The notes under the pieces are model-generated. The model was not told the DNA's origin and made no database searches. It worked only from the letters and a program-made list of their open reading frames with translations. The translations under genes and the position numbers were made by a program. From assembly GCF_054482595.1 (NCBI RefSeq), contig NZ_JBTHVH010000004.1: a stretch of DNA of 64,000 bases. One strand, 5' to 3'. The stretch is from a plasmid. Positions 22,394-22,680 of the stretch are shown here, one piece after another; within the stretch, counting starts at the first letter, position 1, and each line of letters opens with the position of its first letter.

Positions 22394-22455
22394 TAGTCAC
22401 TAGTTAACTCTTTACTAGTGACTAAATTCCATTGATATACGTGACAACGTCACGT
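22394..22455. promoter_or_regulatory. Pair of short perfect inverted repeats sharing a GTGAC/GTCAC core, candidate operator
   Basis: TAGTCACTAGT-8bp-ACTAGTGACTA (22395..22424) and ACGTGAC-3bp-GTCACGT (22439..22455) in an AT-rich leader. Confidence 0.5.
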
Positions 22456-22661
22456 CATGAAAGCTTTTAAATGCCTATTTTTCATACAATGGGATTTAAT
22501 TAGGAGTAAATCCCATAGGCTTACATAAGGATGACAATTAAAAGCGTTAAATATCAACCAGATAGAATGATTACCCCCAATTAATGGGCTCATCACATTA
22601 TTTCACTGGCTGGGGTTATTGCTGGCATATCTGAAAGTGCTAATATGTTAGTCATTAGTAA

Positions 22662-22680
22662 TTAGTAAAGCCTTTACTAA
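22662..22680. promoter_or_regulatory. 19-bp palindrome upstream of the 276-aa gene
   Basis: TTAGTAAAG-C-CTTTACTAA, 77 bp upstream of the ATG at 22757. Confidence 0.5.

Follow-up and report, generated by a model that had tools for sequence, protein, structure and literature searches.

Several described systems come close to the locus reported here. Dual-operator repression, in which an upstream auxiliary operator assists the one at the promoter, is known from lac (O1/O3), gal (OE/OI) and deo. The omega (ω) repressor of pSM19035 (inc18) and ParG/CopG are ribbon-helix-helix proteins, for which 7-bp units, direct and inverted and in 7-bp phasing, serve as operator and centromere, and CopG-type proteins bind 13-bp pseudo-symmetric elements. 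Frpo and ssi are single-strand signals of plasmid leading regions. KfrA regulates its own gene through short direct and inverted repeats that surround the -10 of this gene and are found at a single place in the plasmid; RA3 is stably maintained only if KfrA binds this unique operator, and on specific DNA the protein assembles into filaments (PMC7783346, PMC7821693). Here we describe a cluster of palindromes at 22,394-22,680 of a 64-kb stretch of DNA (the window, 64,000 nucleotides analysed as a whole), which comes from an IncHI2 plasmid and comprises backbone and a resistance region. The cluster lies upstream of two genes, encoding a DUF4942 protein and a long coiled-coil protein (CC hereafter). 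Its sites are real and non-random, are found nowhere else in the plasmid, show deep conservation of their order and geometry, and occur together with the CC gene. We consider it moderately probable that they constitute the cis-regulatory promoter-operator array of an autoregulated DUF4942-CC operon on IncHI-type plasmids, a deeply conserved control region not described before.

The palindromes are real and far beyond chance. A preliminary description, made on the window alone, had reported three of them within about 290 bp, and all three are present (Table 1): P1, P2 (ACGTGAC and GTCACGT around a 3-bp spacer) and P3, although the spacer of P1, given there as 8 bp, has 9 nt (TAACTCTTT). A fourth perfect palindrome with 10-bp arms, P4, was absent from that account. 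Counting perfect inverted repeats with arms of at least 7 and spacers of at most 12, there are five in 22380-22700 (321 bp) against a mean of 0.38 in dinucleotide-preserving shuffles, five being reached in 0/2000 of these, and this is the densest inverted-repeat stretch of the 64-kb window. The GTGAC/GTCAC word, said to occur four times within 60 bp, does so within 58 bp (22396, 22418, 22441, 22449), the window-wide density being 0.086 per 60 bp. The grouping of P1 and P2 by this common core did not hold: P1 has lost it in a 91%-identical IncHI2 lineage and in IncHI1, and the sharing is probably coincidental. The palindromes fall into three classes, namely the O sites (P1 and P3), P2 and P4. 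The search for the same motifs elsewhere in the replicon, suggested at that time, found no recurrence of O, P2 or P4 in the 64-kb window or in the complete 241-kb IncHI2 plasmid pMS8345A; being confined to the array, they define no plasmid-wide regulon, and the array is locus-specific. A relic of a miniature inverted-repeat transposable element, or chance in AT-rich DNA, might be invoked because inverted arms of 22-25 nt (22401-22425 and 22655-22679, 80% complementary) bracket the region. Against this, besides the shuffles, the array is single-copy in the plasmid, its position is syntenic in every lineage, and conservation is site-selective although the flanking proteins are only 32-65% identical; this conservation pattern effectively refutes such an origin.

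Table 1. Positions in the window of the array elements and of the adjoining genes.
Feature	Position	Strand	Description
O1, upstream operator-type site	22394..22425		four TAGTnA heptads: 22394(+), 22401(+), 22412(-), 22419(-)
P1, part of O1	22394-22404 / 22414-22424		TAGTCACTAGT / ACTAGTGACTA, 9-nt spacer
O1 core	22401-22417		TAGTTA-ACTCT-TTACTA
P2	22439..22455		ACGTGAC-AAC-GTCACGT; conserved core GTGAC-N3-GTCAC at 22441-22453
P4 palindrome	22483..22522		perfect 10-bp arms ATGGGATTTA-N8-TAAATCCCAT at 22489-22516
P_R, predicted sigma-70 promoter	22619..22646	+	-35 TTGCTG at 22619-22624, 16-nt spacer
P_R, predicted extended -10	TG 22638-22639; hexamer 22641-22646		TG-c-TAATAT
O2, promoter-proximal operator-type site	22648..22680		contains P3
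O2 heptads	22648; 22655; 22662; 22674-22680		TTAGTCA; TTAGTAA; TTAGTAA; inverted TTACTAA
O2 TAGTnA units	22649(+), 22656(+), 22663(+), 22674(-)		
O2 core	22663-22679		TAGTAA-AGCCT-TTACTA
P3, within O2	22662-22680		TTAGTAAAG-C-CTTTACTAA
DUF4942 gene	22769..23587	+	272 aa from the start of the Prokaryotic Genome Annotation Pipeline (PGAP); Shine-Dalgarno GGAG at 22758-22761
CC gene	23584..24789	+	401 aa; start overlaps the DUF4942 stop; second in operon
Left neighbour, small hypothetical gene	start 22126	-	

P1 and P3 belong to one and the same site type, made of TAGT(C/A/T)A heptads in 7-bp phasing with a 17-bp core, TAGTnA-N5-TnACTA; TAGTMA hexamers number 7 in the 321 bp against 0.13 expected. 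The perfect 11-bp arms of O1 are not conserved, unlike the core. When 13 O sites were aligned, covariation was 0.047 against 0.061 in shuffles, i.e., none, and at position 5 of the half-site the variation is limited to one of the two arms. The absence of compensatory variation is the behaviour of a sequence-specific protein site, and we read the O sites as putative sites of this kind. Their 7-bp phasing is reminiscent of ω/ParG; on the other hand, there are few heptads here (four per site), the inverted unit is offset by the 5-nt centre and not contiguous, and neither a ribbon-helix-helix nor a ParA family member was found in the module or the neighbouring open reading frames (ORFs), the small ones having been searched by Pfam only. 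As to the geometry, the O1 core is situated 27-63 bp to the left of P2 wherever a recognisable O1 is present (most lineages), and O2 187-257 bp to its right across lineages, with 60-130 bp between O2 and the first operon gene in most lineages and 217 bp in locus L060. The two cores, 262 bp apart in the window, are separated by 218-304 bp across lineages (262, 285, 273, 304, 287, ~244, ~231-246 and 218 bp). Same-type operators 200-300 bp from each other, the first at the promoter, the second farther upstream and sites for other factors in between, are also the arrangement of lac, gal and deo; the locus differs from these in having no consistent helical phasing over its 218-304 bp and in that its regulator is only a candidate. 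In fact, helical phasing of O1 and O2 was considered and rejected: 262, 285, 273 and 304 bp are near whole turns, and 287, ~244, ~231-246 and 218 bp break the pattern.

Two further assignments of the O sites were discarded. The Ter consensus (TTAGTAT-GTTG-TAACTAA) is superficially similar to them; as Ter sites for the Tus homologue of the plasmid they fail, having no GTTGTAAC core and a variable 5-nt centre. A conserved leftward promoter at O1 was also rejected, since the perfect TGTATAAT on the minus strand exists in IncHI1 only and is absent in IncHI2 and in L049, and since the left gene varies by lineage.

The P2 core is present in 13/13 sequences with invariant half-sites, around spacers of seven kinds (AAC, GGT, ACC, GTT, AGT, ACT and AAG), and its flanks are neither conserved nor compensated across lineages. 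Each of the 25 fetched loci with this upstream region has exactly one copy of it, and 0/38 of the other fetched loci have any; at least part of the CC gene is held by 24 of the 25, the other one (L004) having lost CC behind a transposon insertion. Half-sites of 5 bp are too short for a stable stem, and P2 is therefore read as a separate, invariant 13-bp putative protein site, which might resemble a CopG-type element. P4 has evolved in another manner. It aligns in an ungapped 40-nt frame across 11 sequences, its arms lengthen to 16 bp in L006 and to 18 bp in L049, and six of its pairs are changed on both sides (equalled by 3/500 shuffles); covariation scores 0.18, a value that 0/500 shuffles (0.088) and none of the slid controls (0.09 at most) attain, and two inner pairs of the L058 copy are changed on both arms. 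These compensatory changes point to selection for self-complementarity, as hairpin or cruciform, and P4 probably extrudes in one of these forms. In L058/L059 (2612-3194) the P4-type palindrome has its arms rewritten in step, CTATGCGATATAAT-atca-ATTATATTGCATAG.

P2 and/or P4 might instead be addressed by host or global plasmid factors, through H-NS/Sfh nucleation or an enterobacterial transcription factor, given that the region has 33-38% GC and that IncHI2, IncHI1 and other lineages retain a gene of the H-NS family in the vicinity. We see little probability in this, as P2 and P4 appear nowhere else in the 241-kb plasmid and P2 strictly co-occurs with this upstream region (25/25 loci, 0/38 others); a metagenome-wide scan with P4 gave, besides homologous loci, only ~30 unrelated matches, near a rough chance estimate made by hand. 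To our knowledge, no consensus of an enterobacterial factor matches P2 or P4.

Conservation in homologous regions, on which the preliminary description had made its reading depend, was found across IncHI2, IncHI1 and further lineages. The order O1-P2-P4-promoter-O2 is kept in all but one (L058) of ~11 lineages, in which the CC head is 32-53% identical. The 91%-identical IncHI2 lineage keeps every site, with one mismatch in P1. IncHI1 has the same gene order and a DUF4942 that is 63-64% identical; its intergenic DNA is largely diverged, and O1, P2, P4 and O2 stand in it as conserved islands with variable spacers. Broadly, the spacer DNA of the IncHI2, IncHI1 and metagenomic lineages is diverged or replaced, and O1, P2, P4, the TTG of the -35, TGCTAAT and O2 are fixed. 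The diverged loci (CC head 32-53%) all have the DUF4942-CC pair followed by DUF1173, and most of them also carry a 55-59-aa ORF, a Dcm methylase and a nuclease; the operon is conserved, and the left-hand neighbour gene is not conserved between lineages. The P4 metagenome scan added further IncHI1-like and IncHI2-like lineages together with a variant, L049, where O1, P2, a P4 with 18-bp arms, the promoter and O2 are directly upstream of the CC gene and DUF4942 is cleanly deleted. Conversely, in a lineage with 30% DUF4942 identity (L007, L013), DUF4942 is present, and there is no array and no P2 in either locus; L007 has DUF1173, the nuclease and H-NS, and the CC gene is absent. It follows that the array tracks the CC gene and not DUF4942. 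The L049 sequence (1-1881) is a single low-coverage metagenome contig, with the DUF4942 leader fused to the CC start and the left flank cut by a Tn3-family fragment. L058/L059, the most diverged lineage (CC head 34% identical), shows GTAAGTC-N11-GACTTAC and TCATAAC-aaa-GTTATGA in places similar to those of the O sites, and these other palindromes may reflect co-evolution of the operator with its binding protein.

O2 is placed at the predicted promoter P_R as a repressor operator would be. In 11/11 sequences with O2, 15-17 nt separate the end of an extended -10 (TGnTAnnnT) from the O2 core, and the TTG (-35) and TGCTAAT blocks are invariant in an 8-sequence alignment. In the window the O2 heptads start 2 nt past the predicted -10 element, and the predicted transcription start (~22652-22654) falls inside them; O2 would thus span ~+1 to +27 of the transcript, and its core ~+9 to +26. 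This last location, together with the covariation of P4, could also suit an action at the RNA level, in which O2 would fold as a 5'-terminal stem-loop of the operon mRNA and influence its stability or translation, and P4 would belong to a small RNA. We judge this very improbable: the O sites have no compensatory changes, O1 bears the same motif outside the predicted transcript, and P4 is upstream of the predicted promoter with no T-run on either strand. In addition, Rfam (E <= 1, 21400-23000) gave no match in the intergenic region, where no convincing or conserved small ORFs were found either; none of the four palindromes was called as an intrinsic terminator, and they belong to no Rfam or terminator class. 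The only Rfam match in that interval is a sub-threshold HH9 hammerhead ribozyme at 22782-22846 (-), within the coding sequence of DUF4942 (22.1 bits, the gathering value being 52; E = 0.015), most likely due to chance.

The CC protein is the best candidate for the binder because it shares the head and coiled-coil architecture of KfrA and because the array co-occurs with its gene. Its N-terminal helical head (~residues 36-140) is the best-conserved part of the protein, and residues ~136-380 match coiled-coil and SMC-type models, i.e., a long coiled-coil tail. A model of the head (120 residues; mean predicted local distance difference test, pLDDT, of 80) has five short helices and then a long helix, which starts at ~residue 110 of CC (76 in the numbering of the model). 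The family is tiny, with 16 matches among 1.8 billion representative proteins in an exhaustive search; a word-indexed protein search with the head returned fragments only. KfrA and its operator OK (IncP-1 RK2 and R751, IncU RA3) are similar in two respects. KfrA likewise begins with a small helical head and continues as a long coiled coil, and OK is an operator of short direct and inverted repeats at its own promoter, unique in the plasmid, the promoter being a predicted one in our case. O1 correspondingly has two direct and two inverted heptads, and O2 three direct and one inverted, beside the extended -10. The differences are several: OK consists of 9-bp repeats or of one long inverted repeat and the O sites have a 7-bp unit and a 17-bp core; the CC gene is second in its operon, behind DUF4942; the CC locus has no linkage to kfrC, incC or korB; and nothing in the KfrA systems corresponds to P2, to P4 or to a second operator 262 bp upstream. 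Membership of the KfrA family was tried by sequence and rejected, as the KfrA_N domain is not found in the CC head. By analogy, the array may thus work like a KfrA-type autoregulatory site, beside a protein that was not placed in that family.

In the mechanism that we infer from these comparisons, P_R would fire rightwards and drive the DUF4942-CC operon, and a plasmid-encoded sequence-specific protein would bind the O2 heptads over the start and block RNA polymerase at P_R. This protein would most plausibly be CC or, failing that, another protein of the module, and binding of CC to the O sites would result in autoregulation of the operon. O1 would act as an auxiliary site, which CC, oligomerising through its tail, could bridge with O2; P2 and the P4 cruciform, located in the bridged segment, may help to load the complex or give it its shape. 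As with KfrA, such regulation could go together with a centromere-like or maintenance function. Several observations weigh against the mechanism as a whole. A strict consensus promoter scan did not call P_R, whose -35 is weak (3/6). Neither in sequence nor in fold does the CC head significantly match KfrA_N or a DNA-binding domain of solved structure, and the KfrA_N (PF11740) matches seen in 2/10 full-length CC members vanish on a head-only scan. The O1-O2 spacing is not consistently a whole number of helical turns, which leaves looping without support from phasing; P2 and P4 have no assigned binder; and L058 keeps P2 and a P4-type palindrome without any TAGTnA O site. Finally, in many IncHI2 plasmids a 34-kb Tn7-like transposon parts P_R and O2 from the operon. 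As this insertion is common, native control must be dispensable for plasmid persistence.

Plasmid maintenance as the primary function was the other half of the preliminary suggestion, which spoke of an operator array or a centromere-like site. The operator half is borne out by the comparative evidence; the centromere-like half is not favoured, there being no partition NTPase gene adjacent (of ParA, ParM or TubZ type). According to it, CC would assemble a filament or a segrosome-like complex on the region, with transcriptional control as a secondary effect, which is compatible with the autoregulated operon proposed above. In its favour, several site types are crowded into ~290 bp, occur nowhere else in the plasmid and keep their order and spacing between lineages, and CC is of the long coiled-coil type; KfrA offers a precedent, as its binding to the operator stabilises RA3 and it forms filaments on specific DNA (PMC7783346, PMC7821693). 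Even so, parA/parB and parM modules already exist in IncHI2, ~80 kb away in pMS8345A, the geometry of O2 relative to the -10 fits a repressor site, and plasmids with the 34-kb insertion between array and operon are common, so that we consider this possibility unlikely. Somewhat more doubtful still is that the array is no simple repressor site at all and is the assembly site of an IncHI-specific nucleoprotein machine, in which CC would load at the TAGTnA heptads and P2 beside the P4 cruciform and then bridge or polymerise, as a partition-like, organising or establishment system.

Single-stranded hairpins acting in conjugative transfer or replication, as an ssi priming signal or as a single-strand promoter for early expression in the recipient, would account for the strong predicted folding of the region as single-stranded DNA (z against shuffles of -6.0 for the + and -5.0 for the - strand) and for the compensatory changes of P4, with arms of up to 18 bp. 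Among the neighbours, the genes for an orphan Dcm methylase, a nuclease and H-NS are reminiscent of establishment genes, and distant homologues of the DUF4942 protein (~22% identity) are found on many other conjugative plasmids. These distant relatives are located in leading regions of IncF/I/L plasmids. Hairpin-rich, AT-rich DNA upstream of establishment-type genes and DUF4942 relatives on conjugative plasmids are indeed shared with Frpo/ssi. Nonetheless, a long Frpo-like hairpin was sought and rejected, as the predicted folds are local hairpins only, and no long stem contains the -35 and -10. The expected location of oriT, the mobI/relaxase region, is at ~55-56 kb in pMS8345A and the array at ~127 kb, i.e., ~70 kb apart; the neighbouring genes are on both strands; and the O sites and P2 lack compensatory variation, the conserved P2 stem having 5 bp, so that most of the sites behave as duplex protein sites. 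We therefore give a single-strand role a low probability.

The DUF4942 protein itself is assigned to Pfam PF13708 (E = 2.8e-26), as it is annotated in pMS8345A, and a fold search gave no significant match. The gene had been taken as 276 aa from 22757; the ATG at 22769 (272 aa), which is the PGAP start with GGAG 7 nt upstream, is the likelier one. Scanning one genome per species, no DUF4942 relatives were found at first, and a second scan gave only one distant locus. A second DUF4942 protein, of 563 aa, is present in pMS8345A at 233906-235597.

The transposon mentioned above is a Tn7-like element of ~34 kb with sil/pco (silver/copper resistance) genes, inserted between O2 and the DUF4942 start in many IncHI2 plasmids. 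The insertion point corresponds to 22715-22719 of the window, with a 5-bp duplication GGTCC (TGTCC in the window), and the element sits 36-54 bp from the O2 core; it is seen in L052/L053 (NZ_CP019019.1), L002 and L004, and the 91%-identical IncHI2 lineage has the same transposon end at the same point. Its usual chromosomal site is the 3' end of yhiN (682 chromosomal places). The O2 region as a TnsD attachment site was rejected, as the plasmid and yhiN flanks agree at 19/80 positions and shuffles at a mean of 19.0 +/- 3.5. Intergenic homology also breaks in other plasmids at ~22304 (a Tn3 transposon in L004), ~22328 and ~22368, so that this stretch appears to be prone to insertion.

Among the main vehicles of multidrug, colistin (mcr-1) and metal resistance in Salmonella, E. 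coli and Enterobacter are the IncHI1 and IncHI2 plasmids, most of whose backbone genes are still annotated as "hypothetical". The array links a control region to one candidate family of DNA-binding proteins that had no annotation, with predictions defined at base level (a promoter, two operators, a 13-bp site and a probable cruciform), and the role of the backbone module (DUF4942, CC, DUF1173, Dcm methylase, nuclease) becomes directly testable. If CC is truly KfrA-like, the IncHI group would be added to the known range of these plasmid cytoskeletal regulators.

The array occupies a 642-bp gap (22127-22768, 33-38% GC) upstream of the DUF4942 and CC genes. The 611 bp around it are 100% identical in many IncHI2 plasmids of E. 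coli, Salmonella and Klebsiella; 1,169 plasmid records, mostly conjugative, match this stretch, and the intergenic region is at least partly present in >1,100 sequenced plasmids and mostly complete in ~900. Downstream of the CC gene are DUF1173, a 55-aa ORF, the orphan Dcm methylase and a thermonuclease, and an H-NS-family gene is located upstream. The set from DUF4942 to the thermonuclease (DUF4942, CC, DUF1173, the 55-59-aa ORF, Dcm and thermonuclease; 22769-29700 in the window) is also seen in L005, L006, L056, L058 and L060-L062. It is a backbone module of unassigned role, whose members travel together, individual lineages being without one or two of them, often with an H-NS-family gene nearby. 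To the left, the ORF at 21833-22126 encodes 97 aa in the window and 126 aa in pMS8345A; it adjoins a Tn3-family transposase gene (18450-21479), and it is truncated because the transposon insertion removed its 3' end.

Direct-repeat words flank the whole array, ~470-490 bp apart (22219-22239 and 22700-22724). One of them, ATAGTG(C/T)CCTACCT, is found at 22219 and 22711, and the other, CTATAGGTT, at 22231 and 22700; the right-hand copy overlaps the insertion point of the Tn7-like element, and the repeats are not seen in IncHI1. In the left part of the gap, which is specific to IncHI2, a terminator-like hairpin, GGCTGGCTTATTAAGCCGGTC followed by CATCATTTTC, is present at 22296-22316, and the Tn3 insertion of L004 ends homology near 22304, just before the right arm of this hairpin.

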